A stretch of DNA of 62,066 nucleotides, filler included, from Hausera hauseri (GCA_046269625.1; 11 parts of 11 records of this genome joined end to end with filler, not necessarily neighbours in it); one strand, 5' to 3'; counted from the whole stretch's first letter, positions 8,301 through 59,402 are shown. The notes: generated from the sequence alone by a model not told the origin. Program-made: numbers and translations.

Positions 8301-9021
8301 TTAGCGATCCAATCAGGGAGCCGAATATATGAACTGCCCCGCATGGGAGAGTACTTGTGCACATACACAGGCAATCTCTTGATGGTTGCCAGAGTCCATC
8401 CGCTCTTCTTATGCTGGCTCTCCTCGGCTTCACTTATCAGCTTCTCATGCGCCTCTTATATCCATTCTGCTATGTTGGTGTTTTCCAATATGTGTCTATT
8501 TTTGGCCTTGAAGGCCCTATTGAATTCTTCGCCATTAACATTGATGTATGTGGCCTCCACTTTCATATTCACCTTAAGGGCTTTGAGCTCAGCCATGTTG
8601 TCATGAAGAATCCCCTTTGTCTCGTCCTTTCTGTATAACAGGAAATCTTGGAGGGTTGTTTAAGCAGTTGCTTCAATAACATATCTGTGGCATTTTCTAT
8701 TTAATGCTGTCCCATAAACTGGCATCCATCTTTGGCTTTATGATGGAGCCGCTGCGTATCATGTGGTTGCGCCTGATGTTGCGCATGATGCTGCGCATGA
8801 TGCGGTTGCGCGTTTTAATTCTCTAATATGCTTCGCTACTGCTGCACCAGATTCAGCAGCATAATGTGATGTATCATACTACGAAGCAGATGCATCAAGA
8901 TTATGTTGCTCATTAATGATGGCCTTCTTTGATTTGATGCGAAGTGACTCAAATGATGTTTGTGATCATAATAGAACTGAATGTAATCTGTGCCGCATAC
9001 AGTCTCACATCCTGGGCAAAT
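5399..9021 (-). pseudogene. Polinton/Maverick (adintovirus-like) protein-primed family B DNA polymerase, decayed
   Basis: Ordered motifs across stop- and frameshift-broken ORFs: GSSYIRLP...NNNDNMCFMYAILS and HLIWIKN (OTU-like), FCDFEA (Exo I), VRDHCHF..YRRGACNNCN (EndoVII-like), FHNLSGYD (Exo II), KGVFPYDY, YLDANNLYGWAM (Pol A), YIDTD (Pol C), DDKR. Confidence 0.93.
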
Positions 9022-16800: not shown

Positions 16801-17670
16801 AGTCTTTACAATTCGCCATCCACTACCCTTTTTTGTGTAGTTGGCGATTTTCTCCTCGAGCTTTTCGCCAATCGCAGCGATAAAATCCTCGATATATGGT
16901 ACAGCTCAATGTGAAAAGTACCACTGTTTCCTGTCGCCTTGCACGTTTTCGAATTCTGAAAGTGCGCAATACTAAACTTTGCAGCTGTGGTGGTGTTGGA
17001 ATTTGTCCACTTCAGATTCCAACCGATTTCGCACAATGGATAGAACATGTATCAATTGCGTTGTTGTTGTTGTTGTCGCTGACATGTTTACTTTTATATC
17101 CATGTACGGTGTTTTCAGATCGTACATGACAGTAATGCGTGGTTCCTTCCCCTGTTGCTTCTGTTCCTGCTGATCCTCCTGCTGTTTTTGGTTTCTGTTG
17201 TTTTGCAAGTATTTGTCAAAGCCTGTTGATGCCCGACGTTTCCTACTTGTTGAAGGAATACTGCTGCTGCTGCTGCTTTATGATGCGTCCATTAATATTT
17301 GTTTTTTCGACCGCTTAAACTGGTTTAAGTGATCATGGTGCCGATTATAAAATTGTTCATAGTCAATTTGATCATCAGCTATAAAACAACCGGGGCACAC
17401 ATAGGCCCGTTTACTGTGCACCGTTGTAGTGCCATAGTATTGCTGCATTGCACTATGGCAAGCACAAACGACATGCACTTTATTGGTACAGTAACGTCGG
17501 TATGTGGAGCAATGCACAACCGTCATCTTCTTGGACCGCGTGAACGGACCGAGATGATGCTTGTGCGTCTCATAAAAGTCGGCGTACGGGCATATGTTTT
17601 GAATAAAACACACGGGACACAGGTATGGATCCTTGGCCGCTGAATAATATTTGGCCATTTTTTGTGGCAT
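13814..17670 (-). pseudogene. Second, divergent Polinton-type pPolB, decayed, with a probable N-terminal Zn-binding repeat region
   Basis: NVKNNSDEYCLLYRILA, YADIEA, DHDHF..YLGAACNSCNL, FPYDF, GIRGG, KLKNNFLYGKT, DDKR. ORF 17278-17670 is in frame with 16972-17208 across a single TAA. Confidence 0.92.
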
Positions 17671-30899: not shown

Positions 30900-31455
30900 A
30901 TTCTGATAAGGCTATGAGTTCCCGTTACTCGAGCTTCTAAATTGATCAATGTATACAACGTTGGTAATATTTCCGAAGAACATTCAATCAGTTTGGTACA
31001 GATGATATGATTGATCTCTGATAAACCGTATACAGCTTCTAAGGCAAGGACAACTAAATATAAATTATGCACAATTAAGTTGGAAATCCAGGATGTAAGT
31101 AATGACTTTGGAAGACTGATAGAAAGTGCAATTTATCATCGGACTGTAAGAGCAAACTTTTCTGTTGGGGACATACTTTTCGTGTCATCGTTGTTCGAGT
31201 AAAAATCGCAGATTTTATTTATTTCTGATTTCACAAGATTTGGAACGAGTTTATAAATGGCCTTTTGTAGTACTAAATCTGGTTTCGTACAACTTTTATT
31301 CACTTGGGTTTCTTGAATTAAATACTGATAGAGCGGACAATAACGGTTGCTTTCGATGTACTTACAAATGCAACTTTTACAGAATGTGTGTAAACATTGC
31401 GTAAGCATTGTTGTGTCAATCAAGTAAGCATAATATAATGTAGAGATTTAAATAT
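30900..31455 (-). pseudogene. Polycomb group RING finger (PCGF/BMI1/Psc-like) relic
   Basis: IDTTMLTQCLHTFCKSCICKYIESNRYCP...DLVLQKAIYKLVPNL...DFY matches the BMI1 RING region. The last Cys is lost (CPLY), and the downstream RAWUL-like part is broken by a stop. Confidence 0.85.
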
Positions 31456-33299: not shown

Positions 33300-36200
33300 G
33301 TATATTTGACACTTAGAGAATGTGATTGACTTTGGGACTGCTGTGGATGAGAAGGTGAGGTAGAGACTTGGTATCTAATTTAAATCGACACGTCAGGTGG
33401 AGAAGCGAAATGAGTATTCGATCTGTTTGTAGTTGATCTGATCCATGGGTGTTGATAGGACACAATCTGTGCCCTCGACCGCGGCACCACATCACGCCCC
33501 TCGTGGCAGAAGAGAAACTATGTAAAGGTAAAAAGGAATGATAACGATAATAAAGATGAAAACAGTGAATTGCAACAAAGGAACAATGTTTACCGTTTAT
33601 TCGGTTTTAGTATGGGTTAAGCGTTGTGTATCATCACAGAACATTTATTTGCTGTAGGTGGTAAATGTCGCTCTGCGTACTTTACTTGACGGATTTGTGC
33701 TGGGCTGTTGAGTGATATTTTGTGATGGAGATAATAGAGATGAATCAAGCCAAAGGCGATTCAATTGGAAGTGATGAAACAATCGATGTAGGTAAAGGAG
33801 GTGAAGAAAGTAGTGAGCATGATGGCGGAGCGGGAGGTGAGATGGATGGAGGACATGACAATGCTTGAGTGTGACAGAACAGCGATTGCTGCAACGGCGC
33901 AATGTCATTTAGAAAATCGGTAGGAGTACGAGTTGAGTTGGAGTTGGAGATAGAACTGGTATCCAGATTGCCATCAGTGAAGAAAGCGGGCTTCAGATTC
34001 GAAATGTGGACGTTGTAAGGTTTATCTTGGCGTAAGATGGTTGCTGTATGACATGAAAGATTCACCAGTTTGTATGGTCTAACGTATTGAGGTCTGAAAC
34101 CAGAAAGCGATTGATCCTTCAGCCACACAAACTTGACGGAGTATAAATCCTTCGGAATATAGGATTTGTTGTTGTTAAAGAGACGACAGAATGAATCTGA
34201 GCTGACCTCGACGAAGTGCGATTGTGCTGCACGGATGTTTTCGTCTGTGCGGTTGTCGCCTAGATCAGAAAGTTGGAGTCCCAATGAATGCTTCGGCTGG
34301 AGCACAACCGGTAGTGGTAGATGATGTGTTGCGCCAACTTAATAGAACAAATGGTAGAATGGACATCCAATTACGATGAGCGTCAGCCAAGATTTCGAAA
34401 GAAACTTTCATTGTTCGATAAAACCTTTTAAGGAGGCCATTTGCTTGAGGATGGTATGGAGTTGTATGGAAATGGGATATTCCCAAGTGTTTTACAAGCG
34501 ATTTGAAGAGTTCTGATTCAAATTGTGGACGTTGATCCGTTATTATATAACGTGGGAAACTAAAACGACTGATCCAGATTTTTGTAAAGGCGTCAGCTAC
34601 TGAATCAGTGTTCGTTGAATGAAGGAGAACGGCTTCAGGCCAGCGAGAAGCACGATCCAGCATAGTAAGGATATATTGATATCCGTTATCAGAAGGTAAA
34701 GGGCCAACGAGATCAAGATGAACTGTATGAAAGCGTGATGTACAGGGGAAATGGTAAAGCAACGGTTTAAGGTGTTTGTTGATTTTGTATTTTTGACAGG
34801 CTACGCATTCTTTAATCCAGCCCTGTACATCTTTGCGCATTGATGGCCAAACTACATGACGTTGAAGCAGGCGAAAGGTTGCTTTCGAACCTGGATGATG
34901 GAGTGAATGCGTATGAACGAAAGCTGGCTTTTGTAAAGGTGGTGCTAGAATGATCTTTCTGTTACCAGTATTCGACGTATTAAAAGCAATGCCATCAATA
35001 ATCTCGAAGGATTTGAAGGAACTAAGGAAGTCAGCAGACTTCGAGAAAATCGGCTCAACTGTAATGGATCCAACCGACCTCGATAGAAAATCTGCTACCA
35101 AATTATCTGTGCCTGAGATGTATTCCAAAACAAAACTGAACACAGACAGGTATGATATATGTCGCTCTTACCTCGGCGATGGTTGTTTTAACGGCATGAT
35201 GTGTAGGAGCGGCTTTTGGTCAGTTTGAATAACAAATGGACGAGAAGGAAGTAGGTGTTTAAAATGTTTTACTGCCAGAACTATGGCGAGTAATTCACGG
35301 TCAAATGTTGAATAGCGGCTTTCGGGTTGTGTAAGCTTCCTAGAGTAAAATTCTAGTGGTTCATCAACCCCGTTGAAAATCTGGTGTTGTACTGCACAGG
35401 TAGCTGTATTTGAGGCATCAGTCGTAAGTATAAGATTTGCCTTGGGCTTCGGATAGGCTAGTATTTCTACGGTTTTTAGGCCTTCGCGTAAGTTATCAAA
35501 TTTGGCGATTAAGTCATGAGTCCAGTGGATTAGTTGCCTCTTTTTCCCTGAAGATAGATGTGCGAAAGGTGCCGTGAGCTCAGAACAATGAGGCACGTAT
35601 TTTTGGATGAAGTGGAGTGTGCCTAAGAAACTCCTCATATCCGTCGTGGTCGTTGGTAGCGTTATGATTTTTAATTGTTGTAGTCGATCTGGTTGTGGAC
35701 AGTGGCCGTTAGAAGTGATCACGTGGCCTAGGAAATTAGCACGTTTTTGAAAAAAATGACATTTGGAAACATTGACTTGCAAACTACTGTGATGTAATCT
35801 GTGAAAGATAATACGGAGATGTTCTTGATGTTGTTTAACAGATGTGGAGGCGACTAATATGTCATCAATATATAAATGAGCAAAGCCAGGCCTGAAAGGA
35901 CGGTATCAATGTGCCGTTGAAAAGTTTGGAAAGCACTACGTAAACCAAATGGCATGAAAATATATTCGTAGAGGCCAAATGGAGTAATAACAGCAGTTTT
36001 TGGAATATCATCAGGTGCAACCGGAATTTGATGATAGGCTTTATGCACGTCAATTGTGGAGTACGTGTTAGTGTTGGTAAGACTGTGCAGGATGTCCTTT
36101 ATGAGAGGTAAAGGGTAAGCATCCAGGGCTGGTAGATTGTTTAACTGCCGATAGTCACCACATTGTCTATAAGTGCCATCTTTCTTTGTCACTACAGGCA

Positions 36201-37725
36201 CAGGTGAAGCCCATGGGGATTTGGATCTTCGAATAATGCCAGCCTTTTCGAATTTATTGAACTGATTAAACAGCTTTTTGCCTACAAGGTGACAATGATC
36301 TGACTTTTTGTCTGATAAGTCTTTGGTGTTCGGTGACTACGCGGTGATAAGTTGTAGAATGCGGCTTGAAATTGACGTCCTTCTTAAGAGTGCGGAAACA
36401 AGAAGTTTTGATGTATGATTTAAGATCAGATTCTAACGATAAGAATGATGAGGGCATATTATTGAAAGAGTCAGTGGCTGTAATTCATGTAGAATGACTG
36501 AACACTTTTATTAATGACATTCGGTTCAACCGATTGTTTCAAAATTGATTTGTTCCCACTTGACGAAATTGAACATATTGATGAAATGTTAAGGTTGTTG
36601 TTGTCAACCAATGAACAGGATGTCAAATTGACATTTGAATGAACCGAGGAAGACAAAGTGTCCGACTGGTCATTTGGTGAGCATTTGCTAGAATATGCAA
36701 GGAAATTTCTGCGCAGGAGGCATTTATGCTTGCATTCGACTAAAAATCGTATGCAGCCAAGAAATCGGAGCCTATTATGGGCGATTTGATGTTGGCTATA
36801 TGAAATTTCCAGGGAAATTTCCCCGGTAGGTTGAAGAATGTGAAAGTCAGTTTTATGGTTCCTACAATGTTCAAAGGTTGACCACAGGCAGTGAAGAGTG
36901 GAGGAGAGAAAACAGTGTTGGATGTAGGAGTGAAAGACAAAGGAAGAAGTGAAAAGGCAGCTCCTGAATCAATAAGGAAGTCTATGTGTGATGTCTCTTC
37001 AAATAACAAATCAGCTTTCAACAGAAAGACTGCAGAGGAGGTGTTGAAACGGCCAGAAGTTTGAGCTATATTGCTTGTACCAGAATGTGCCGTGGCATCT
37101 GGTGGCATTATTAGATTTTGAGGATTGTTGGGAAAAAGAAGAGGAATTATGAGTGCGAGGAGGCGAAGAAGATGGAAAGAAACTGGAATTCTTTTTATAA
37201 TATTTACATCCTGGCACGCACGACCTAGCCTAAGACTGATACTTTGTGTGATAGATGCAGATTGGATTGTCTACTGCACATTGTTCATCGTAGAATCGAC
37301 AGCCTAAAACACATTTCCTTGCCTTTGTGCGGCATTTGTAGTGATAAAAACACGTCATTTTACCATCTCTAGATTTGGAACGAGACGAGTGCCTGGAAAA
37401 ACCGCGATTGCGTGAAATACGATTTTCGCTTCCTCGAGGCACGGAGAAGTCACTGAGTTGGGCTGTGATCGCAGAAATTGCTTGTTGGAGTGTGTCGAAC
37501 TGCTTTTGCATCATATGCAGTTGTTGTGCAAATAACGTGTTGTCTGGCGGTGTGTGAGCGGTTGCTGCAGCTACTAGCTGTAAATTATTGGATTGCAGAA
37601 TATCAAAACTTTTGTCTGCCAACAAGGCGAGTTTTTCAGGGGCAGTAGAGTCGTCTACTACAGTGAACAACGCTCGGATGGAGGTTAACAAAGACGAAAG
37701 AAAATACCGACGAAGAAGATGGGCC
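33300..37725 (-). mobile_element. Ty3/Gypsy LTR retrotransposon (CsRn1-like), decayed: gag-PR-RT-RH-IN; possible PPT/3' LTR start near 33491
   Basis: CHCC knuckles, FLIDSGA protease, CGDYRQLN and MPFGL RT, TDAS..YSTFDRELLA RNase H, HLDLVGPLP and HPQANG integrase. Confidence 0.93.
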
Positions 37726-37754
37726 TAGATACCGGTCACAATCACCTGCGAGGT

Positions 37755-40700
37755 CGTCTATCTGCTATTATCACAGCAAATTTAATAAAAGTACCGAAAA
37801 ATGCTGCCTAGTGTACAGATTTTACAATAAAAGTTTTTTTCGGACACAGTTGTTTGCATTTACCACTCAAATTTTAAACATCAAGCCCGTAAATGCATTC
37901 CGAGCTGCACTTTCAAAACAGATTCGAACGACGGGTGTGCTACCTTTTCTTTTAATAGTCGTCCTAATTCACCTTTCCACAAAACCTAAGTTTGCCGCAA
38001 GAAGACATGGCAAACTCTGCTAAAGGCACTACTTTACCTTCTGAATGCCGACACGCCTCTTTGGGGACTTTACTCTAAAGACCACAATCACTGCCCGTAC
38101 AACGCAATCCGTTGATTTCCTCATTGATACAGGTGTACCGATCTCTTTATTGCCACAAACTTTTCCTATCCAAAATTCGTCATTTAAAATCAAATCTTTA
38201 TACACCGCTTCGGGTCAACCGCTGAACATTTCTGGCATGGTTAAACTATCTTTTACTATACCAAAATTTCCTTCATCTTTCTACTAAACATTCACAGTTG
38301 ATAATGTCCAGACGGCAATTCTAGGTTCTGATTTTTTATCCCATTATAATTTATTAGTTGACTGCAGTCAACGATGTCTGAGGAGTGGCACCATTGGCAG
38401 CGTTAGCAAGCACATAAACAGCGTTTAGATTACCGCGCAGTCGATTGAGACGCGGAGATCAATTTTAAGGAAATCAAAAACTAATTCGAATTTTCGTAAC
38501 AATTACATTTCATTTCGTAAATTTTTAAATCATAACGTTGATATTCAGTTGAGGTTTGATGTCGATAATTGTGGTGCTGTTTCTAGCGTTAATTCACTCT
38601 ACGAAATCACTTCATCCAATACCACTTTTCAATTCCACCATTTTGCACCAAATACCAATTGACTTTACATCAGCACACAATTCACAAATTGAATCTGCTA
38701 CTACTCAAGTTGTTTCACCATCATCACCGAATCTCTCACAGTTGCCTAGAACTTTGCAGCAATACGTCAACACATCATATCCACGCGTACTTAAAAGATC
38801 ATACGTTTACTTCCGCTAACAGTACTTTACACCCCATAGTTACACAGCATCAACAACCAATACACCAAAAGTACGACCACTATCACCTCGTCGTAGTCAG
38901 GCCGTAGAAGCCAAATTTCTTGAACCAGAACGCTCCGGCATTGTACGCCATTCAAAATCTCTATGGTCGTCACCTTTACATGTCGTACAAAAGGACGGAA
39001 CTTTTAGACCATGTAGCGATTACCGACAGTTGAATAACTTGACCATTATGGATGCGTGCCCTCTGCCACTCATAAAAATATCTGGCATTACCTTAATTTA
39101 ACCGCAATTTATTCGACCATCGATTTGGCCAAAGCATATCACCAAATGCCGGTGGCACCCGATTACATAAAAAAGACTGCTGTCACTACTCCTTTTTGTC
39201 GCTACGAGTATCTGTTTATGCCATTCGGTTTGCGAAATGCCGCACAAAACTTTCAAAGTTACATTGATACAATTCTCTCAAATATCCCGTTTGCGTACCC
39301 TTACATTGATGATATTCTGGTTGTTTCGTCTTCAGCCAAACGGCACGAGGAACACCGCCGTGCAATATTGCAACGTCTTAACCACTATAACCTACAAGTC
39401 AATTTTGACAAATGCCATTTCTTCAAAAAGCGCATCAACTTTTTGAGCCATGTTATTTCACCAGACGGCCACTCTCCCAAACCAGACCGAGTTGAAGCCC
39501 TTAAGAATATCCAGTTACCACGTACGACCACTGAAATGTGCAGCTTCCTTGGTACACTACACTTTGTACATAAATATGTACTATATTGTTCTAAACTGAC
39601 GGCATCTATTGCACACTAAAGCCGAGGCAAAAACATCAGCCAATTCAGTGGACACCTGAGTTGGTTGACAAATTTAATAAGCGACGAGAAGGAATTAAGA
39701 CCGTCGATATTCTCGCTTTCCCCAAGCCTGATGCAGACCTCATCCTTACTACAGACGCGTCAACCACTGCTGTAAGCACCGTACTCCACCAGATCTACAA
39801 GGAAGAAAATGAACCACTAGAATTTTTCTCTCGCAAGCTAACATCCCCTGAAACCAGATATTCAACGTTCGATCGAGAACTATTAGCCATCGTTCTCGCT
39901 TTAAAGTATCGCTGCCACCTACTTGTCGCTTGCCATTTTACCATACCGACCTATCCCAAGCTTTCAACTAACATCATGGCTATAAAACAGCATATAATAG
40001 TGTACATTCGCTACACCATCCTGGTGCTGAAGCCACTTTTTCTGCGGAGCACAAATACCGACACCTTAGCTGACGCTTTTATTCGTACATGGATTAGCAG
40101 GTTTGGATCACCTCGCTTCATCATCACGGAGTAAGGTGCACAGTTTGAATACAACCTGTTCAAATCCGTCGTTAACCGATTTGGGATCTATCACATACCT
40201 ACTACGCCTTATTATCCCCAAACGAATGGCCTTCTAGAACGTTTCCACCCAACATTGAAAACGTCACTAAGAATCCTTGCAGAGTCCAACACTAGCTGGA
40301 CGACCCTTCTTCCGTTTATTTTGCTTGGCTGCCGGAATATTCCGTCTACTTCTACGGGATATTCACCTGCTGAAGCCTTATTCGGAGCTCCTGTATGATC
40401 ATTATTCGAACTAACTGCCCCGGACGACACTCCTACAGATGAAACGATACGGGCAGCGCAAAATCAGAAATTCATTCTGCAGGTTATTACACAAAGACAA
40501 AACATATTTACCCGAAGACTTGTGTTCGGCAAAATTCGTATGACTAAAAATCAAACGCCGTGCGATTTTCAGCCGCGGTATCTGGGGCCCTATAAACCGG
40601 TGGAGCGACATTCGCATAACGCTATTATTTCTAAAGACGGCAAGGAAAGCCCTCCTTTTTCGTCAACGATACGTCACCAATCGACACATTGACTCCTTTT
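37755..40700 (+). mobile_element. Second related Gypsy copy, decayed, with a deletion between RH and IN
   Basis: FLIDTG protease, YIDD RT, TDAS/FDRELLA RNase H, WISRFGSP and PQTNG integrase. Confidence 0.92.
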
Positions 40701-40719
40701 CTCACTCTTGCACCGGCAA

Positions 40720-43460: not shown

Positions 43461-44137
43461 TTCTTCTTTTCAATTCGCTCCACTACATATGTATTCATCC
43501 CCTGAGAAGTACGGGGTCCTAAGAAAAATTTTCTTTCTTCCTCCTTGGCCTCTTGGAGCATCTTGTATAATTCATTTTCTTCCGAGCAGTTTTCAATCGC
43601 CATATAGATAACAAATTGACGCAGATTACATTCTTTCTCATCTTTGTCATCTTTTCTTACCTCTACCACCTGCACTTCCGGAACGGAATAAAGGTTTGGA
43701 TCAAGCCCCGGCAGGTTATACTGATGGCTGTCCAGTACTGCATGAATCTGCTGTAGTTCCTTAACTTTTACATATGGATATAATTCTGCTATCTTCTCAG
43801 GATATTCCATGACCTCTTTTAAGTCCTTTTCCTGAATGTATGCTCGTTTCTTTTGTTCTTCGTGAAGTGTCTTTAAATCGATCTTATCCGGTGATGAAGT
43901 ATCTACCTCTGTCAAATCCACTTGTGGCATTGGCATATATCCTTGCGGAAGCATATTAGAAATTGCGCAGTATAGCCGGCCTTCCCGGATTTTTCTTACC
44001 AAGGCAGCCGCCTGCTCATCCGAATTTCTTTCTGCATAATGATAGATCATAGAGCCAAATATCTTCTGCGAATCCGGAATTTGGGTCAGCCGCCCTGTCA
44101 GTTTCATACAAATCTCGAAAACATCTACCTTTTTCAT
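43461..44137 (-). CDS. Divergent type III CRISPR Cas5/Csm4-like RAMP; 3' end runs into the gap
   Basis: PDSQKIFGSM (cf. Csm4 SDTLFGAL), ISNMLP..YMPMP, KKRAYI and a C-terminal G-loop LGPRTSQGMN. It lies directly after csm3 and has an AGGAGG RBS. Confidence 0.7.
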
Positions 44138-44145
44138 CTATTCTG

Positions 44146-44151
44146 CCTCCT
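44146..44151 (-). promoter_or_regulatory. Shine-Dalgarno AGGAGG overlapping the csm3 stop codon
   Basis: TAGGAGGCAGAATAGATG on the minus strand. Confidence 0.8.
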
Positions 44152-44836
44152 ATCTGACATCAATCCGAACTCTGCCATAACCTCTGCTGCCAGATCCTCC
44201 AAGTCGATAAATACCTGAATTGAACTCCAGCAAAGATTTTTCTACAAACTCTCTAATGCCCTTTATCCCAAGTCTTTCCATTCGATAGAGCAGAATATCT
44301 CCGGTAAAAACAACTCCTGGACGCACCGTTTTATAGGTTCTTGGCTTTGCATTTATCTGGTCTTCCACAACATCAATTCTATTTTTGGAATCTATTGAAA
44401 ATAATTCTCTTTCTTCCTGGCCTTCTTTTACTATCAAATCATTAAAAATCAGTTTGGGGGCATCATTGAAGCCCTGTACTCCAAACAGGTATTCCGCAGA
44501 AACTTCTCTAATTGTCTTTGCAAACCGTTCGTTAATTCCTTCTTTTCTCTCAGGTTCAATCTTTTCTGCTGCTCTTTTCAAATTCTCTTTATTCTTTTCT
44601 TCTAGATCGCTAAAATATTTTTCATACGCGTGTGCAATCTCTTTTGCCGCGCTGTCAGACTCCATGTCGCTGATAATTCTGCGCAGCACGCCCTTTAAAG
44701 AAGAGGCAGGAATCAATGGCTTATTATGAAAATCGGTCTTCGTGTACTGATCTATGCCTCCAATCTCAAATGAGGATGGAGTATCCCCAATAAACAAGTT
44801 TGATAACGTCGTTAATTCTATCTTAATTCTTTCCAT
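44150..44836 (-). CDS. csm3: Type III CRISPR Cas7-family RAMP (Csm3-like crRNA backbone/RNase)
   Basis: LTTLSNLFIG, IGGID (putative catalytic Asp29), PLIPASSLKGVLR, LFG, LIFNDL, NRID, PR..VRPG..F and the G-rich loop LGGSGSRGYGRV. Confidence 0.92.
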   Translation of the reverse strand: MERIKIELTTLSNLFIGDTPSSFEIGGIDQYTKTDFHNKPLIPASSLKGVLRRIISDMESDSAAKEIAHAYEKYFSDLEEKNKENLKRAAEKIEPERKEGINERFAKTIREVSAEYLFGVQGFNDAPKLIFNDLIVKEGQEERELFSIDSKNRIDVVEDQINAKPRTYKTVRPGVVFTGDILLYRMERLGIKGIREFVEKSLLEFNSGIYRLGGSGSRGYGRVRIDVR

Positions 44837-44842
44837 CTCGTT

Positions 44843-44848
44843 CCTCCC
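44843..44848 (-). promoter_or_regulatory. Shine-Dalgarno GGGAGG for csm3
   Basis: GGGAGGAACGAGATG on the minus strand. Confidence 0.8.
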
Positions 44849-44859
44849 ATTAACAATGA

Positions 44860-45243
44860 TTATTTCGTTGACAGATAATGAATTTTAGCCCTGTTAAATC
44901 GATAAAAGATCATTAAGGCATCTACATATTCTTTCTTCCATAAGCCAGACTTTGCTGCCGTACTCTTGAAATCCTTTTCCCTAAAATACAAGTTCCCTGG
45001 CGGCTGTGTGCATTTTCTCTCTTCCTCTTCTTTGAGATAATCTTCTTCCGTCTTGGGATTCAAGGCTGTTATCATTACAGCCGCAGCATCAATATCCATA
45101 TCGAATCTTTTAAAGCGCATAAACATGGAGTTTGTAATTTGCAGAGTCTGGTAAACCTCTACAGAACTATCCTTATTGGGATTCGGGTTTGTATAAAAAG
45201 CCTTATTTACAAATATATCTGATTTGCAGTGTCCCCCTTTTAA
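44860..45243 (-). CDS. 5'-truncated type III subunit (Cas10 C-terminus or atypical Cas11/Csm2)
   Basis: The frame stays open 39 codons upstream of the tracked ATG, up to the junction with a eukaryotic repeat. It occupies the operon position before csm3 and ends in the helix EYVDALMIFYRF. Confidence 0.55.
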   Translation of the reverse strand, partial: LKGGHCKSDIFVNKAFYTNPNPNKDSSVEVYQTLQITNSMFMRFKRFDMDIDAAAVMITALNPKTEEDYLKEEEERKCTQPPGNLYFREKDFKSTAAKSGLWKKEYVDALMIFYRFNRAKIHYLSTK

Positions 45244-47410: not shown

Positions 47411-48457
47411 TCAAAATAATGTGCAATTTTTGCCATTGAAATAAAAAAGTTTTCCATACACAAAAAAGTTTGTGTAAAGTTGAGTCGAAAGAAAATTTTT
47501 GTCTATTTCTTTATTTCATATTAGGAAAATACTTAAGCAAGAAGTACCGATATTGGAAATAATTATTATCCAGAACTCAAAAATTTTCATATGTTGGCAC
47601 AAATATTTAAATTCAGCATATATAAGTATAATTTGTTAGATTTGATATCATCAGCATTCTATCACAGATGAGTCAAAAATAGCATAATCGATTTGATTGA
47701 CTTAGAAACAAATCAATTTACGAGATTTTTTCAAAAATGACTAAGTCAGGCTGAAATATAAAATGTTATTCGGATGAAATGTTAACATTTCTGGGAACAT
47801 TACTGTATTTTAGCATTTTCAAGCTACCTACATTGAAAACGTATATATGTATATATTTATTGATTAACTATTTTTTAAAACCATTATTTCCATCACAATA
47901 TAACTTCCTTCTAACAAGATAATTTTTTACAATTTGGAGTAAGTCTGACAAATCTAGACAACCGTGGGAAAATACAATGTGTATAATTAGACAGAATCAG
48001 ATAAGTTTGTTAAACGTGGAAAAATCAGGATCCACAGCTACGACCAAATTATGCACATGAAACAAAATGGTGCCAAAAACTATTTTAGATTATTTTTCAT
48101 CAAAACGCCAAATCGATGGATGTACTGCCATAAAAAGCAAAAAATTAAAGTTGTTACTAAAATTTTGGAGAAATTATCATGAGAAACTTGACGCGAAAAA
48201 TAAACTTAGAAAATTTGAAAATCTACTGGAGCTGTTGAAGGAGAAATCAGTGCTTTATTGTTATATTTACATCATTGAGGCGTCTTGAGAAGAAAATCAA
48301 CAGCTACGGTAATATGAAGACATTTCATNNNNNNNNNNNNNNNNNNNNNNNNNNNNNNNNNNNNNNNNNNNNTTAATTAATTAANNNNNNNNNNNNNNNN
48401 NNNNNNNNNNNNNNNNNNNNNNNNNNNNTTTCTATTCGCTACTTCAATTTTATTGAA

Positions 48458-48890
48458 ATGGTTACCGGTCCAGGTTGGCACCACTACCTTTTCTCTTTGC
48501 TTTTTATGATTCCGCCCGTTTTTGGTCGTCTCGAATTTTTGACCTGTAACTGTTGTCTAGTGATGGCGTCATTTGGTGACACATATTGCTATTATTCTGG
48601 CATGACTCCTGCCACCCTTGGAATCCTAAATCATTTCAGCAAAACAATTCTTTTCCTTAGTCCTCAGATGATAAATTTCGTTTATTCTATTCAACCGTTG
48701 CTTCACTTTATCCTTTGTCCACGACACTGCTTCTTTAGATATTTTGCTACTTTCGACAAAGATACTCATTCTACATTGATATTTAAATTAGCTTCATTGG
48801 GTAAAATTGATAAACGACACTTTCACGTTCTGAAGTATTTGACACTCGTAGGAATTAGTGAACTCGACGATGACTACATAGAAATTAATA
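48458..48890 (+). pseudogene. DPAGT1: DPAGT1/ALG7 (GlcNAc-1-P transferase) fragment, degenerate, with similarity ending next to a Gypsy element
   Basis: HYLFSLLFMIP...GDTYCYYSGMT...GILNHFSKT...PQMINFVYS...CPRH. Confidence 0.8.
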
Positions 48891-49086
48891 AAATCGTCCA
48901 GTCACCTAGTGGCATTGTTAATTACTCACCACTCATACCTTTTCCTGCCAAACCCACCCAACCCAATATCAAACCATCTATGGAAATTAATGGATCTGTA
49001 ATGAGACAATGTGGAATCGAGGCACATTATCGCAAAGTAACCCTCTTAACTTCGTAGGACCACGTTGACATACCACTCTACCCAGC

Positions 49087-52000
49087 TTGCCCCTATCATC
49101 GCTGTTTTCATTCTCCCTTTATGTCAATAATAACTTAATACAAACCGTATATATTACACAACGTATGCAAACAATACAATTATACGCTCTCGTTTATAAT
49201 ACCACCGCCTATACAGATTTTTACCTGACTCATAACGGTTTCATTTCAACTGACCTCAAACAAATCATGGTCTCACATCACCATCTATGTATACACGTAA
49301 ATCCTAGGGTCCGCGGCGGTATTATTGCTGCACTAACTAGTGACACCACCGATAAAGCTACCACAAAACCCAAATCCATTTTCTACTACCCCAAACCAAA
49401 CCATCCACCTACTTTAACCGATGCAAATTCTTCTCACAAAAAGCCTATAAATACTTCCCTACATTGCACTGAATACTTTATAGATAATGAAAAGTCCAGC
49501 AAAACTTGGCTCCACTTCCATCAACTCTGGTTGCTGTCCAACGGTATTACAGACTTGTTATCCAAAGCCCATAATCTACTTTACCTTCTGCCAAACTCCA
49601 TAAAGACCTCAATCCCTAACTTACTAGACATCTTTCAACACCCCAACCCTTATACACAATTGTTCAATGCTGTGTTAAAACAGATAGAACCATAAATTAA
49701 TTCAATAATGCAGCGTTTCTTTAATGAAAACACAATGGGGACCCAAAAATCTAGCGATTTCCTACGCACCTCGTTGGCTCACTTACGTACTTTAGGCGCC
49801 ACCAAGGAACATAACCCGGATCTACGTCGATGATAATTCCCTAACCCTTTACCAATTCACATTAGGGCTTTGCTTACCGTTGTTGACGATTCTACAGCCT
49901 TAGATAAGCTAGCTGAATTGGCCGAAAAAGTACACGAAGTCTTACAAATCCAAGCACAACTCATTATATCAACCGCTATCACGAATGATGACGATCAACC
50001 ACATGCATCCATCGAACACCAATTAAATCAATTACGTGCCGAAAATGCGACACTCCAACACACAATCAACACCATCAACAATAAACTGAACGAGATTTCA
50101 TTGACTCGACGTAAGGGTTTCATACGTAACCGTAACCTTTCAATATCTCCTGGTCGTTCACCTTCACCTGGACGATCACTGATTTGCTATTACCACGGTA
50201 AGTTTGATAGCAATGCGCAAACATGCCACCTAGGGTGCAAATTTTATAATCAAATGTACCATACGGACAACGTCATTTGCATGTATTATGCAAAATTCAG
50301 ACATAATGCACGCAAATGCATTCTAGGTTGCACGTTTGAAAACAAACCCCACCATGCAAATGACGAACGCACAACTTTCGTTTCTAACAGTCTCTCAGGT
50401 TCTCTGTTTTCAAAAAACTGATTTCGCCGCTAGCATTTTCGGCAGATCCTGGCAAAGGCAATTTATCTAATTCCTTTTGCTGACACACTTCATATGCAGT
50501 CTTCACACTAAAGGCTGCTATCTCTAATCCTAACATTTAATCCACAGATTTTCTTATCGATACTGGTGCAGCGATATCATTACTTCCACTTTCTTTTCCG
50601 GTTCAACATTCTTCATCTAAAATAAAACCTTTATGCACTGCATCTGGTCAATTTCTCCGGATTTTCAGAACTTGTAAATTATCTTTTACTTTACCAAACT
50701 TTTCCTTTTCATTCCATTGGAAGTTTACAGTTGCTAACGTCCATACGGCAATACTTGGCTCAGATTTCCTTTCGCACTATAATTTGCTAGTCGATTGTAA
50801 CCGACGCTGCTTACACCTGTAGACCGTAGCACAGGTTTAGACAGCATTCCAACGACACCAGAGGCAACGTTAAGTAAAAATTCTATTTAAAACAGTCGGT
50901 ACCTCGTTCTAATCCCATTAACTATCACGTTTTGTATTGTAAGTTTCAAAAGGACAATGTCGACAGACAATCACAACTCAATGTGGACACTGACGATCTG
51001 GTATTTTCTGTAAAATCGTTGAACAATAACACTTACTCAAACACGGTTCCGGACCCGACCATCCTACTACAAATTCCACTTGATTCCTCATCTACAACCA
51101 ATTACCATACACCAAGTACTGATAGCAACCTCGGTACATCGTCCAGCAACTACCCACAAGTTTAGGACAATTCGTACATACTTTTTGTCCTCGTATATTC
51201 CATAAAGATAGGAATTTCATCCCAGTAAACAGCATTTATCACCATATAATTACAAGACATCAAAGGTCAATTAGACAAAAGGTCCTTCCATTGCCATCTC
51301 AAAATATTCTCAAATCGATCAAATCTCATCAGATAGTCGACGGCGTAGCCTTAGATACCTCCAAACCAGGACCGTCCAAAATAATTCTTGCTCCATCTTT
51401 ACACAAACATGCATTTCATAATGTACATTCGTTACATCATCTTGGTGCCAAAGTAACTTTTCGCTTACTTCAACGGCAAGTAGTGTGGCCAACCATGCGT
51501 TAAGATATGCAAGCATGGTTTAAAGAGTGCGTGCCTTGTCAAAAATGTAAAACAATAAAACACCTAAAACCTCCTTTATACCATTTTCCATGCACATCAC
51601 GCTTTGAAACTGTACATATTGATATCGTCGGTCCTCTTCCAATAGACAACGGACATCAATTTATTATGACCATGATGGATCGTGCCTTACGATGGCCGGA
51701 AGCCATTCCACTACGGAACACAAACACTGACACAATAGCCGATATTTTCATCTGCACGTGGATTAGTAGATTCGGATCCCCTCGTTACATCATCTCAAAT
51801 CAAGGCTCTCAATTCGAATCAAATCTGTTCACATCTCTAGTCAACCGATTAGGTATAAATCATATTTATACTACACCCTATCATCCTCAATCAAATGGCC
51901 TGCTCGAATGTTTCCACCGAACCTTGAAAACATCACTTCGAATCCTGGCTCAGTCAAACCCCAACTGGACCACACTTCTACCGTTCGTCCTGCTCGGCTG

Positions 52001-52400
52001 GCGAAACACTCCGTCCACTTCCACGGGATGCTCAACTACTGAGGCCTTATTTGGTACACCTGTTCGCTCCTTGTTTGAATTAACTGCCCTAGATAATACA
52101 CCTACAGACGAAAAGATCAGAGCAGCACAGGACAATTTCGTCGCGGTCAGTAAAGTCTCATTCTGTAGAATATATCACAACAGTAAGACGTATTTACGCG
52201 ACGACTTGTATTCCGAAAGTTCGTTTGACTACGAAATCAAACGCCGTTTGGTTTTCAACTGCAGTATCTAGGGCCCTATAAGCTAATTCAACTACATTCC
52301 CAGAACGCTGTAATTCTCAAATACGGAAAGGAACTAGCAGTCCATATAAATAATGTGAAACCTGCCTTTTTTGTAGACGACACATCTCCAACCGAAACTT
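49087..52400 (+). mobile_element. Third CsRn1-like Gypsy copy: gag (with N-terminal Ubl-like segment), PR and IN; RT/RH deleted
   Basis: Gag NPYTQL...MGTQKSSDFLR, two CHCC knuckles, FLIDTGA, then directly the integrase HHCC and DDE region (HIDIVGPLP, YHPQSNG). Confidence 0.9.
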
Positions 52401-52760
52401 TGCCAAACTTTCTCACTCATGCATTTTCTTTTGTTTCCGCTTCTGTCTCTACTCCTGCTTCATTTTCTGCTGTTTCTGTTTCTGTCCACGCATCCACTTA
52501 ACCTCCTATTCCTATCCCTACACTCAATACGACAGAAGGTAACATTTTTCCTCCTAAAGCATTTCAACAAACGGCGACAAAATCAAAGACAAATCACAAA
52601 ACTGTCACTTTCAACAAATACAGTAAGGAGAGAAACATCGAAGGTATACAACATCTGGTTNNNNNNNNNNNNNNNNNNNNNNNNNNNNNNNNNNNNNNNN
52701 NNNNTTAATTAATTAANNNNNNNNNNNNNNNNNNNNNNNNNNNNNNNNNNNNNNNNNNNN

Positions 52761-53734: not shown

Positions 53735-56321
53735 GGCCCTGAAGGGGAATCTGGATTGATTGGTAATATTGGAAAAAATGGTCCAGCAGGTGCTCCGGGA
53801 GCTAATGGACCAAATGGTCCACTTGGCCCTCCTGGAGATGACGGACCTCCTGGACCAGATGGTATCAGAGGTATTATGGGAAAGAAGGGTAAGGTTGGCG
53901 ATAAAGGAACTGAAGGTCCTATTGGTAATCGTGGGGTACGAGGTCCAAGAGGAAAGAGTGGTGTTCCCGGAAAAGATGGAATAAATGGGAAACCGGGAAA
54001 GGATGGAAAACTTGGAGACCCTGGAGTAATTGGGGCTACTGGGAAAATTGGACGACCGGGACCTCAAGGAAAACAGGGAAGTCCTGGTCCATTAGGAGAC
54101 AAAGGAGACATTGGTCCAATTGGTACGTCAGGTCCTTCGGGAGTCTCGGTTAGTTGCGAAATATTCCAAAATATTCTGCATTTAGAATTTAATACGTTTG
54201 ATGTTTTAGTACAGACGATGATTACATTTCATTTTGAAGGTTGTAATAGTTAATAAAAATTGAAAGTCTTGGTAATCCTACTCTCATAAATAACCATTTT
54301 CTGAAACAGTTTCAATTGAGCCGCCAACTTTATCTTTCTGCTCAAGCACAGCAATATCGTACCCTTCTTTAAATAAAAGGTAAGCAGTAGTTAAACCNNN
54401 NNNNNNNATGGTTTTTAATAGAATTTGTTATAAGAGTACAACATTTTACGTTAATCAGTAATATAAATAAGACGTAGATATGTTATGCGAAAGGTTGTTT
54501 GACTACTTTGAAATAATTTCAAAACAATGTTGAAAGTGAAATACATATGCATAATAAAATTCAAATTTTCATTAGGGAATACCTGGAATGCCAGGACCCA
54601 TTGGCCACCAGGGATCTATTGGACCAAAAGGCAATCAAGGAAGAAGTGGATCTCCTGGTGCAATGGGAATTGCTGGAAGATCGGGGGTCAGAGGCCAACC
54701 GGGGCCTCAAGGTCCTCCCGGACCTGTTTCTTTTAGTGGAAGGTCAGGTGGTGAAGCTGGTGCTGTAGGAAAGCCTGGAGCGGCTGGAAAGGCAGGCAGA
54801 CCCGGTGGAGCAGGACCACCGGGAGACTTGGGTAAGAAAATAAATTGTATACAATTTTTAAATAAGCTTGCCTTTGATTCCTAAAGTAAATTATTACTAA
54901 TGATTTACTTATAATATTTGAGAATCTGAAACATTAACTTAATGCTAACAGGTCCACCAGGAGATGTTGGACCAACCGGTCCTTCAGGAAAACCTGGGAA
55001 ACAAGGAAAAACTGGTCCACCTGGAATACTTGGAAAAGATGGTCTTGATGGTAAACCAGGTGCAGATGGGCCACCTGGACCTGCAGGACCCAGGGGCAAA
55101 ATGGGCCCAATAGGCAATAAAGGTAAACCTGGACCAACAGGACCTCCAGGAGGTCCTGGATTTAGAGGCATCACCGGACCTCAGGGAGACGATGGACCGG
55201 ATGGAGCTCCGGGTAAAGAAGGGCCAGCTGGGCTTCTTGGACCTGACGGTCTGCCCGGACTTCAAGGTTTTCCCGGTGACGCCGGAAGAGATGGGGAACG
55301 CGGAGACGTTGGAAAACGTGGCCCAAAAGGAAAAATTGGAGAAATTGGAATTCCAGGATCAACAGGTCGTGATGGTAGACCAGGAATTGCCGTAAAAATT
55401 TTATTTGATGTTATAATACAACATTTGATAAGGGTTTACGAGGCGATACTGGAGCTCCGGGTCCACGAGGCCCTGAAGGTGCACAGGGTCAAGTGGGTAT
55501 TCTTGGTCCTGTTGGTGATTCTGGGGATCCAGGACCTAAAGGGAAGCCTGGAAGTACAGGACCGAGAGGCTCACAAGGATTACAAGGCACTGGTGGTGGA
55601 GTTGGAGAAATGGGTGAACAAGGTGCCATGGGAAAAGAAGGAGCGGCTGGACCTGAAGGACCCCCGGGTCAACCCGGTCCAGTGGGGATAACAGGAACAG
55701 GAGGAGTTGCAGGAAAGTCTGGTGGTCTTGGGTTTAAAGGAAAAGCTGGTGCCAAAGGACTTCCAGGAAAACCTGGAAAAGAAGGGCTTCCTGGAAAAGT
55801 TGGTCCCATGGGTAAACCAGGTGGCAAAGGTAAGTCAGGTAAAGGTGGTACTGATGGACAACCCGGAAAACCTGGGCAGACTGGTCATCCAGGATTCATG
55901 GGTATTAGAGGATTACCTGGACCTCCTGGTCAAATCGGTGATAGAGGTGATGAAGGTGCACCTGGACCACCTGGAATTCAGGGACCGTTAGGAGATGTTG
56001 GTGAACAAGGTTTACCGGGCCTAAAAGGACCAATTGGAAACGACGGTGAAAATGGAACAATGGGTCTGAGTGGTCCATATGGTAAAGACGGACCGCCTGG
56101 TGTTCCAGGTCCACTTGGAAATCCAGGCCCACCTGGTCCTCCAGGACCACCAGCCATGATGTTGCCAATTACGTATAATACTGAAGTACCAATGTACTCT
56201 GATGATCCCCATGTTGCCGATGTTTTGGGATCTGATACAATTGCAGAACCATTAGGAACAAAGTCGTCTCCAGCGCGATCCTGTGCTCATTTAATATCAC
56301 GGAATGCAGATATCCATGACG
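53735..56321 (+). CDS. Fibrillar collagen alpha chain, partial; exons 53735-54148, 54576-54831, 54952-55391, 55433-56321
   Basis: Continuous Gly-X-Y across GT/AG junctions, a terminal GPP run, C-telopeptide and the start of COLFI ([12 protein letters not shown]). Confidence 0.93.
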
Positions 56322-57650
56322 GTTAGATTGACTTATTATCTTAAAATATCAAAATTGAGACATTTGGCTTCATTTCCAAATAATCAATTTATTTTTTAAT
56401 TACCATAAAATTATGTAAGCAATGCATCAAATTCTTCAGATTTAAATTTTGTGCAGAAATATTAGATGTATCAGATGCGGAAATTTACGTAGGTTCAGTA
56501 ATTTAAGACCAAGGGTTTCTACGTACAAATAATAGGGTTGATTCGACATTGATGAATATTTTACGAAAGAAAAATGTCTGGATTTAAAATGTGTTTTAGA
56601 GTTCAAGATTTCGTAATAGAAAATTCAAAATAATTTGCATTGGTTTCGGATACTAATTTATACAATTCAGAAAAGAAATCGATTGACCTTTGCATGGAAA
56701 CGCAAAACAAATAGTACAAAATAAGGATATTAACCAAGAAACCAACCATTCAAGATTCATTCGAAGAATGTATAAGCAGTCATAGTCAGAAATTGATGTT
56801 TTTACTCATCGCTTTAGTTCGAAAGACTAATGTTCAAATTACTCCATTATGTATCACACTATATAAACCGGTGTTCTTCAAAAACAAAGATAATAAATCA
56901 GTATTCCTTATCATACACTGAGTGCTTTGATCACAAAAAGAGGTTGTATTTAAAGTGCGCCTATTTTAATTTTTGGGTGTTAAAAAAATTTTTATTAAAA
57001 AAAATTTACTTTATTANNNNNNNNNNNNNNNNNNNNNNNNNNNNNNNNNNNNNNNNNNNNTTAATTAATTAANNNNNNNNNNNNNNNNNNNNNNNNNNNN
57101 NNNNNNNNNNNNNNNNAGTACGTCATTTTTTGCTTTTTGTTTATTATTTGGATTTTAAATTATTGATTTTTATTTATTACGCTAAATCATATTTCCTTTA
57201 TATAATATTCACATTCCAGACTATGAGTAATCATAAATATGAAAATGATTTCGTAATACAGAACAATAGACGGCATAATGCAGCACAACTCAATACTCTC
57301 GTCATATCCGTACAGGCTTTTATTACGTTTTAATACAATTGAAATAAATTAATTAATTTGTAATAATTATCATTCTAAAACGTGAAAAGTCAAAAGCGTC
57401 TTGCAAATTTTGCAATGTTGTTACCAAATAAATTTATTTCAGTCATAACATGAAAATCGCCCTTCACAAAACTAAATTTCGTAACATATGACATTAATAA
57501 TTATTCAAAATTTTAAATAAATAATTGGTCATAATTTTGTTCAAAATAATTTAGACTACTAAATCAATGTACAAATTATATGGCAAAATTTTTTCTGAAA
57601 ACAAAATCCAAACAAGAATTGCAAATATTTATTGATTTAACCAATTTAAT

Positions 57651-58436
57651 TTATTCAGATACTCGAGCTACATCGCAACTCAGGTTGACCAATAATTTCA
57701 GAACAACTTTCTCCAATGTTTCCACAGCTACACGGATATTCTCAATTCCTACTTTAATTCTCACGGATATGTGAACTTTAATGTTCAAGAGAGCTTCAAG
57801 GATTGCCTTGACGACAATAAGAACCTTGGCAACTGCAGCTTTCAAATTCAGTGATAAGACATCTCTGAGAATTTCCAAAAGACCTCCACGTAATAAATAG
57901 AATACTGGTCTTAACAGTCCATTCAATGGAATAATTCCTTCTGTTAATCCAAGAACATTGCACAACAATCCACTGACTAATCCACCTTCTTTGAGCAATT
58001 CTGCCAACAATCCATGTTTTCCAATAACTGCTTCTAGTAAACCACCGACTAAACCATGTGGACCAAGCAAAGCACCAACAATGCCTTTAGGTCCAAGAAG
58101 ACCATGCAGAAGTCCTCCTAACAGGCCTCCTTTGTCAAGAAGACCACCGAGAATACCTCGTTCACCCAACAAAATATCCAACAGACCTCCTTTACTTCCA
58201 AGTAAGCTATTCAACAAACCACCAAGGAGACCTTTTGGTCCGAGTAATCCACCTAATAGACCTCCTTCTCCACCAAGAAGACCGCCAAGAAGTCCACCTC
58301 CTTTTCCACCTCCAAGAAGACCGCCAAGAAGTCCGCCTTCTTCACCACCTCCACCTCCACCTAGAATACCACCGAGTAGAGCACTTGTGTTGGAAACAAA
58401 CAACACAAAGAAAGCAGCGCAAATTATGAATTTCAT
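57651..58436 (-). CDS. Secreted Gly/Leu-rich (GGLLGGLL repeat) protein, 261 aa
   Basis: Intact single ORF with signal peptide MKFIICAAFFVLFVSNTSA, more than 10 GLLGG-type units and an aliphatic C-terminal region. Confidence 0.85.
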   Translation of the reverse strand: MKFIICAAFFVLFVSNTSALLGGILGGGGGGEEGGLLGGLLGGGKGGGLLGGLLGGEGGLLGGLLGPKGLLGGLLNSLLGSKGGLLDILLGERGILGGLLDKGGLLGGLLHGLLGPKGIVGALLGPHGLVGGLLEAVIGKHGLLAELLKEGGLVSGLLCNVLGLTEGIIPLNGLLRPVFYLLRGGLLEILRDVLSLNLKAAVAKVLIVVKAILEALLNIKVHISVRIKVGIENIRVAVETLEKVVLKLLVNLSCDVARVSE

Positions 58437-59402
58437 GGATAAAATTTTTCTGGAAATATTTCCTTTTTATAGCTTTAGTCAACTTTGTAATAGTCTAGAG
58501 TACCGTCGGAAAACGACTTCTTTTTGACAAGCATGTATACAACGCATGGCATAGTTCCACTTATGACACTTTGCACAATCTCGAACTTCAAGTTTAAACG
58601 ATTGGCTCTTTTTCTCTAGTAGTTTCTGGAGAAAGGTTTTGTGTTAAACGTAGACGTTTAAATTGGATTAAATAAGTATATTTCTACATACAGAAAATTT
58701 CCATTTATTGCATATTAATTTCGTTCTAAAATTATGAAACTGGCTATCAATGACTCGCTGTAAATGTTTTAACGAATTTGTTTCATTTGTGTTGATGTAT
58801 ACGATTAGCATAATTTATTAAAAATAACATCTTGTTTGATGAAACAGTTATTTTTAAGACTACAATTAGTGTTTAGTTTTATTTATTCCATTGCGTTTAT
58901 GAAAAAACAACCGATTACGTAATGTTTTACTTATTGATTTTGATTATAATAAAGTACAAAATTGATACAAATATTGCTTACTGATGAATGAAACAAATAA
59001 TAACATGAAGTTGCAAGAATGAAACAAATTGGCAAAGGTCACACAAGTTTGATACATTCTAAGTACATTAAATACAAATTTAAATAGGGTTACCTAATAT
59101 TTTGTAGGCATGCTCTTTGCAGACAACTGCCTTGATCCTGTGTGACATAGAAGATGAAATTTTGACTGAATTTTGGAGTTTCGTCTGTTTTCCAGGTCAA
59201 TCGGAACTTTGAAATTAAATCACTATATGATGTAGAATGCATTGCATGTACTCATTTCTTGAGAAGAACAAAACAATTTTCCATTGGGTTCAAGTCTGGT
59301 AAATTTTTCGGCCAGGAGTTCAGAATGTTAATACCTTCATTCACAATACAGCATTATTACCTAATTTGTATAAGATGGTTTCTGTAACAAATTATATATA
59401 TA

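Follow-up and report, generated by a model that had tools for sequence, protein, structure and literature searches.

A Gly-Gly-ending ubiquitin-like leader on a CsRn1-like Ty3/Gypsy Gag and its predicted removal by a host deubiquitinase

The Gag locus and its element

The window, by which we mean the whole 62,066-nucleotide stretch analysed here, consists of short contigs of mixed origin joined by N44-TTAATTAATTAA-N44 spacers. The Gag copy of interest lies on the contig spanning 48429-52660. Eukaryotic genes, a collagen gene among them, lie on neighbouring contigs, so that the host is probably an AT-rich animal. The following features were recognised on this contig.

48434..48889, plus strand: DPAGT1/Alg7 fragment, truncated at its 3' end, matching human DPAGT1 residues 206-360 (E 1.2e-21)
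49102..49320, plus strand: predicted ubiquitin-like (beta-grasp) domain (Ubl) of about 73 residues ending in a GG tail (AlphaFold2 model, VIA-align matches, homologous segments in relatives P0001 and P0002)
49291..49320, plus strand: tail IHVNPRVRGG, with a putative deubiquitinase (DUB) cut after 49320 (invariant GG columns; model aligned to ISG15, FAT10 and ubiquitin)
49321..49464, plus strand: Pro/Thr/Ser-rich linker of 48 residues, not conserved (no pairwise similarity, pLDDT under 50)
49465..50421, plus strand: CsRn1-like Gag with capsid, coiled coil and nucleocapsid, interrupted by stops at 49693, 49831 and 49834 (identity to relatives)
50185..50331, plus strand: two tandem CHCC knuckles, the first (50185-50238) intact and the second (50278-50331) without its His
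50412..50418, plus strand: A AAA AAC heptamer closing gag, positioned such that a -1 shift would enter the pol frame
50556..50820 (end approximate), plus strand: aspartic protease region, with DTG at 50559
51225..51296, plus strand: junction of an internal deletion that removed about 1.2 kb of reverse transcriptase (RT) and RNase H (RH), its flanks matching 36436-36290 and 35110-34835 of a sister element
51393..52279, plus strand: integrase with zinc finger, rve core and GPY motif (52271) (Pfam Integrase_H2C2 E 1.3e-5, rve E 3.8e-10)

The Ubl, the linker and the start of the capsid share a single stop-to-stop frame (49069-49695). A preliminary description had proposed a ubiquitin-like domain of 78 codons, starting at a TTG at 49087 and fused to a Gypsy Gag within 49087..49695. 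Positions 49087-49320 are indeed 78 codons whose last residues are IHVNPRVRGG, with RVRGG at 49306-49320 and the FYLTHNG motif that it singled out at 49219, and the same frame runs on through the 48-residue linker to CsRn1-like capsid sequence from 49465. The joining of a Ubl tail to Gag within this span holds, but its end is a premature stop inside the capsid, Gag continuing to 50421; the Ubl likewise holds but shrinks to about 73 residues, the modelled fold beginning at about 49102. The TTG is not supported as a start, being only the first TTG after a stop in a frame open from 49069. In-frame ATGs occur at 49009, with a stop at 49066 between it and the domain, and inside the domain at 49165 and 49267; none opens the Ubl in the window copy. 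A pyrimidine-rich stretch on the plus strand (49043-49085) ends in AG just 5' of the TTG, with CTTAAC about 40 nt upstream; that it is a splice acceptor supplying the missing start is speculative. Only 36 of 20,000 shuffles leave the 132 codons before the capsid without a stop.

The copy had also been called decayed, and so it proved: Gag carries stops, RT-RNase H is deleted and neither start codon nor LTR was found. It is a non-autonomous, decayed member of a lineage carrying Ubl and Gag together. Neither LTR-like repeats nor a primer-binding site was found on contig 48429-52660, which ends at 52660.

The DPAGT1 fragment is intron-free, shows a one-residue gap and altered conserved motifs, lies in a frame different from that of the Ubl and ends about 213 nt 5' of it. 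It is probably flank, outside the element, and either the element inserted into a pseudogene or a piece of host mRNA was captured. Relative P0002 carries, in residues 289-548, a Rrp44/Dis3-like cold-shock domain and a CNOT1 CAF1-binding domain ahead of its Ubl-Gag; these host-gene pieces parallel the DPAGT1 fragment and might be a hint that the lineage captures host sequence on its 5' side. An upstream 208-codon ORF, considered as an additional element gene, was rejected as being the DPAGT1 fragment, and so was a tRNA-Trp primer-binding site near 48572, its TGGTGAC look-alike falling within DPAGT1 codons. A conserved leader 5' of the Ubl was discarded as well, there being no same-strand similarity to the upstream sequences of P0001 and P0002; a single opposite-strand score among the 18 upstream comparisons (z 3.6) was taken as chance.

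Two decayed sister Gypsy elements, 33745-37724 (minus strand) and 37733-40712 (plus strand), share 66-72% identity with the focal copy where the matches are longest. They adjoin in back-to-back orientation, about 9 bp apart, and each is truncated within gag, an arrangement that may reflect inversion, nested deletion or an assembly join. The leader cannot be tested on them because they lack the 5' part of Gag, and neither a second Ubl nor a second capsid N-domain was found elsewhere in the window. The order PR-RT-RH-IN is complete in sister 33745-37724; the focal copy keeps PR, IN and the GPY motif without RT-RH, and RT/RH core sequences of the sister elements found no match on its contig. The focal integrase also matches those of PFV and Ty3. 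A stimulator structure for the frameshift was rejected, the 82 nt 3' of the heptamer folding no better than shuffles (z -0.82), and weak Pfam matches to FtsH_ext and Arteri_Gl were dismissed.

The capsid is 33-47% identical to those of the relatives over 76 residues, and its part of the AlphaFold2 model matches the PEG10 CA-like domain (Z 7.1). A strict CX2HX9CX3C match, the signature of the CsRn1 clade (PMC2582038), occurs at 50185-50238 and in all four relatives. DUF7041 of Pfam is matched by three of the four (E 0.00019-0.012, under the 28-bit cut-off) and not by the window ORF. The lineage shares with the clade (CsRn1, PwRn1, AgCR; PMC2582038) this knuckle, a capsid of probable DUF7041 type and a DTG protease, and further the PR-RT-RH-IN order (seen in the sister element), the GPY motif and the -1 gag/pol arrangement; it differs in that its Gag begins with the Ubl-GG leader and has two CHCC knuckles instead of one. 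The word "ubiquitin" is absent from the main text of the PwRn1 paper (PMC2582038). Two strict knuckles occur in P0001, P0003 and P0004, P0002 ending after the first. P0005, a DUF7041 Gag retrieved by the family profile (E 1.3e-32) and serving as the canonical-type contrast, carries a single knuckle, lacks GG and has some 30 residues ahead of its capsid domain. Duplication of the knuckle thus seems to go with the Ubl as a mark of one lineage.

Relatives and predicted fold of the leader

A phmmer search of the window ORF against 1.84 billion representatives (E<=0.001) returned four relatives, P0001-P0004. The alignments of P0001 and P0002 (query residues 14-208 and 12-206) span the Ubl, whereas those of P0003 (93-203) and P0004 (129-203) begin only in the linker or the capsid. 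As the latter two were matched on the capsid only, they are unbiased tests of tail conservation. All four relatives carry an N-terminal segment ending in [RK]xxGG ahead of the capsid, with linkers of 18-37 residues as compared to 48 in the window copy. The preliminary description had made its proposal depend on the tail recurring in other copies: the GG is conserved and in frame with Gag in four of four, and of the RxRGG that it named [RK]xxGG is kept, while Arg directly before GG occurs in the window copy alone (one of five). The GG site is single in each of the five proteins, including the 996-residue P0002 (as GGG in P0003), and in the five-sequence alignment G83 and G84 are the only invariant columns outside the capsid. 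Shuffling the 132 residues that precede the capsid in the window copy yields [RK]xxGG in 0.34% of cases; for P0003 and P0004 the figures are 3.1% and 0.3%. A fuller tail pattern, written after the tails had been seen, was matched by 24 of 50,000 shuffled sequences, and the six-frame translation of the window (124,128 residues) contains it only twice.

The domain itself has diverged far more. The Ubls of the two closest relatives show 27% and 38% identity to that of the window copy; with the tail removed, P0001 and P0002 still score well above shuffles (z 7.4 and 7.7, the score being reached by 1 and 0 of 1,000), and P0003 and P0004 show no detectable similarity to the window Ubl (z -0.2 and 1.3, with 559 and 116 of 1,000 shuffles reaching the score). 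Among the linkers, nine of the ten pairs have no similarity above shuffles, the best z being 2.3. It is to be noted that P0002 is a chimeric gene model and that P0003, as predicted, starts inside the domain without its first two strands. A word-index homolog search with the window ORF found no homolog among 152 candidates, profile searches recovered only P0004, or P0003 together with P0005, and a search of plasmids gave no match; 184 pattern matches in prokaryotic genomes yielded none that was confirmed. The six-row tree has no starred branch and supports no claim.

These comparisons bear on the simplest objection, namely that there is no real fusion and that a 5' UTR left open by chance, or a fragment of some host Ubl, happens to lie beside one dead copy. 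The decay of the copy, its missing start codon, the broken DPAGT1 upstream and the chimeric nature of P0002 would fit such an accident. The same order of domain, tail, linker and capsid is nevertheless found in four of four relatives, two of them homologous in the Ubl and another modelled with a ubiquitin fold, which largely refutes the objection and leaves it very improbable. Judged by these alignments and by predicted structure, the Ubl-GG leader is a real and lineage-conserved feature of a CsRn1-like (CHCC) Ty3/Gypsy Gag, with conservation resting on five sequences.

A beta-grasp fold had been named as a check of the domain, and one is predicted. AlphaFold2, given the six-row alignment A4, placed strands at residues 12-19 and 22-30, a helix at 35-46, a strand at 51-55, a helix at 63-67 and a strand at 73-77, the strand register being uncertain by one residue. 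Confidence was moderate, with pLDDT 62-70 for residues 11-70 and under 50 for 78-144, for which reason the register of the GG rests on weakly modelled tail coordinates; single-sequence prediction was uninformative (mean 36.4). Compared by VIA-align with 48,161 representatives, the model matched seven chains at Z>=8, and nearly all matches listed are beta-grasp folds (PB1, doublecortin, Ubls, ubiquitin, ISG15, SUMO) with Z 7-9 and rmsd of about 2 A over about 70 residues. The Z values are largely tied, PB1 and doublecortin standing level with true Ubls, and a Z under 8 may reflect only a common arrangement. Several of these alignments put G84 opposite ISG15 G157 or FAT10 residue 165, and G83 opposite ubiquitin residue 75. 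Identity to ubiquitin-fold structures is 3-20%. Foldseek listed mainly ubiquitin-like domains, none at E<=0.001.

The Atlas model of P0004 residues 1-100 matched ubiquitin/Rad60-SLD clusters in nine of ten rows (TM 0.67-0.73, feature scores under 0.9); since P0004 is also in the AlphaFold2 alignment, the two results are not fully independent. Searching the Atlas by features of the window Ubl produced nothing usable. Searched against the PDB, the family profile gave 15 weak matches at E<=10, of which two are ubiquitin-eS31 fusions with the GG in register (E 0.61 and 0.79, a score owing part to the basic tail after GG) and the remaining 13 map to the coiled-coil region. Profile A2 gave no ubiquitin match in the PDB, and phmmer of the Ubl against it returned one irrelevant match (E 6.3). 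In Pfam, the window ORF has no ubiquitin, SDE2 or DUF7041 match at E<=1, and the sole ubiquitin-family signal is Rad60-SLD at E 0.9 for P0004; the Ubl and DUF7041-type assignments rest on the relatives and on the fold.

A resemblance to the SDE2 Ubl, suggested earlier, finds no sequence support as an origin, and the GGKGG context of SDE2 is absent. The SDE2 Pfam family is listed for none of the six alignment members, by a search whose HMMER filters drop weak matches, and no SDE2 structure is among the fold-search matches listed.

Predicted cleavage of the leader and its meaning

LTR retroelements are generally assumed to mature Gag with an aspartic protease of their own; that of the focal element is an unlikely cutter of GG-X bonds. 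The tails of the five leaders fall into narrow classes, P8 being V, I, V, V and A, P5 R, R, R, R and K, and P4 V, L, L, L and A, with P1' never Pro. In human SDE2 the GG, L70 and R73 are needed for cleavage by USP5 and L74 contributes, L70A and R73A abolishing cleavage and the change at L74 halving it; these three residues correspond to ubiquitin L69, R72 and L73 (PMC13572447). The dependence of SDE2 cleavage on GG has also been reported elsewhere (PMC5131917). SDE2 further conserves GGKGG (PMC13572447), a cleavage context found in none of the five leaders, while all five combine a conserved GG at the ubiquitin C-terminal position with a basic P5 and an aliphatic P4 and P8. That the positions read by deubiquitinases are kept while the rest drifts is the main reason to expect cleavage, and from the sequences and the analogy with SDE2 we consider it quite likely that a host deubiquitinase cuts the leader.

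The precursor would be a CsRn1-like Gag composed of Ubl-GG, disordered linker, capsid, coiled coil and two CHCC knuckles, as suggested by the Ubl and GG being kept in frame in five Gags whose capsids share only 33-47% identity. Its leader is predicted to fold as a beta-grasp that places the GG where ubiquitin has its C-terminus. A host deubiquitinase, plausibly a USP5-like one, would cut after GG co-translationally or shortly afterwards, by analogy with SDE2, FAU and ubiquitin-ribosomal protein fusions. In the last and weakest step the leader would act as a removable folding and expression tag and as an assembly gate, its removal freeing assembly-ready Gag. The freed GG-ending domain would probably be destroyed, as happens to the DUB products of SDE2 and FAU, whose GG-ending Ubls are cleared by KLHDC2 (PMC8013793). 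We assign a probability of roughly 60% to this reading, in which a host deubiquitinase clips off Gag a ubiquitin-like leader serving as a removable folding and expression tag that gates assembly, as the sequences, the model and the analogies suggest.

The idea that cleavage exposes a defined new N-terminus on Gag, part of the preliminary description, is weakened: the residues after GG are IIA, MGP, SDV, GPK and NDE, so that P1' (I, M, S, G, N) differs in all five. With P1' variable and the linker unconserved, leader removal is probably the aim, not one particular N-terminus. Asn and Ile, which P0004 and the window copy would expose, are N-termini of destabilising classes, and cleavage might accordingly be thought to produce an N-degron, or a specific N-terminal residue, that sets Gag half-life and hence copy number in the manner of SDE2. 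The five P1' residues share no class, however, no linker sequence is conserved behind them, and SDE2, whose cleavage exposes a destabilising Lys, keeps its GGKGG (PMC13572447), all of which makes an N-degron quite improbable.

The divergence of the core also bears on whether the domain is cleaved at all. It could be integral to Gag, of Rad23 or MSFT-1 type, docking it on the proteasome or a partner or tuning its abundance, with the GG as a hinge or relic. The top structural neighbours listed do include integral Ubls and PB1, and Maverick cargo Ubls regulate abundance (10.1101/2022.07.12.499685). An invariant GG is nonetheless hard to square with a domain core at most 38% identical and a linker with no conservation, and the DUB-contact classes at P8, P5 and P4 are kept in all five leaders. 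A basic P5 would be superfluous in a hinge; an integral Ubl is on this evidence unlikely.

E1 enzymes activate a C-terminal GG that is free, and the released domain might itself be the point: a mimic of ubiquitin, either conjugated or luring away E1, E2, DUBs or ubiquitin receptors, that blunts ubiquitin-dependent restriction of the element. The Ubls of the window copy, P0001 and P0002 are lysine-poor (1, 2 and 0 Lys), as would fit a chain terminator, the stoichiometry of Gag would make the product abundant, and host ubiquitin pathways reportedly target retroelement proteins, as in the case of PEG10/UBQLN2. Yet an identity of 3-20% to ubiquitin folds and fast surface divergence fit host E1 recognition poorly, a P3 Arg is present in one leader of five, P0003 and P0004 carry 5 and 7 Lys in their Ubls, and the GG-ending Ubls of SDE2 and FAU are degraded (PMC8013793). 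We consider such a mimic improbable, to the same degree as an integral Ubl. A combined reading, in which a ubiquitin-fold gene captured long ago became a two-product device, the host DUB maturing the capsid and releasing one ubiquitin mimic per Gag to counter ubiquitin-dependent restriction, is rather unlikely; if true, the set of DUBs present in a given cell type, such as the germ line, would gate particle assembly.

Several known systems come close to this architecture. SDE2/Sde2, FAU and ubiquitin-ribosomal protein precursors likewise have an N-terminal ubiquitin fold, a GG tail, aliphatic P8 and P4, a basic P5 and an unrelated passenger (PMC13572447, PMC5131917, PMC8013793). The focal case differs in that a retroelement capsid is the passenger, that conservation ends at the GG, that no SDE2 sequence link was detected and that cleavage is here predicted. 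In cytopathic BVDV, ubiquitin-NS3 is processed by host DUBs, so that a parasite polyprotein uses host ubiquitin hydrolases as processing protease, putatively as here (PMC8310069). The BVDV insertions upstream of NS3 are recent, near-identical host captures in single strains (PMC8310069), whereas the focal leader is old, fixed in a lineage and diverged almost past sequence recognition. The Maverick cargo proteins MSFT-1/WASP and KRMA also carry divergent N-terminal Ubls on mobile-element proteins, but on cargo proteases and kinases rather than a capsid, and the main text of that paper contains neither "cleav" nor "di-glycine" (10.1101/2022.07.12.499685). The 2A-like peptides of non-LTR retrotransposons are a non-standard processing signal too, but act by ribosome skipping (PMC3708506). 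The Ulp1/OTU proteases of Ginger, Mutator and Helitron elements are a further case of mobile elements touching the ubiquitin system, although Ginger and Mutator carry the protease (PMC2836005) and the focal element the putative substrate.

No description of a Ubl-GG leader on a retrotransposon Gag was found in PMC/bioRxiv full text among the matches listed; Repbase, GyDB, subscription journals and supplements may hold annotations. Both parts, a CsRn1-like Gag and a GG-ending Ubl, are of known kinds, and it is their combination that was not found in print. A lineage-wide GG-ending leader would place the first step of Gag processing under a host enzyme, and particle assembly would come under direct influence of the ubiquitin system of the host. 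The ubiquitin-fusion trick would here exist in a natural and long-maintained form, whereas in parasites it has so far been mainly a matter of sporadic pestivirus insertions. As Ubl leaders can escape Pfam, more of them may sit unannotated ahead of transposon genes.

Other contigs of the window

Bacterial CRISPR RAMP-family genes (43461-44884, minus strand; Pfam RAMPs E 1.2e-13) lie on a contig amid eukaryotic ones, probably as contamination or a chimeric contig. At 6244-8455 (minus strand) a protein-primed type B DNA polymerase is present in fragments (DNA_pol_B_2, E 4.4e-7), which we take to be Polinton/Maverick-like, and fragments at 14425-16905 look similar. The window also holds a multi-exon collagen gene (53735-56326, plus strand), a Gly/Leu-rich repeat protein with no Pfam match (57651-58466, minus strand) and a RING-finger fragment (31136-31447, minus strand).
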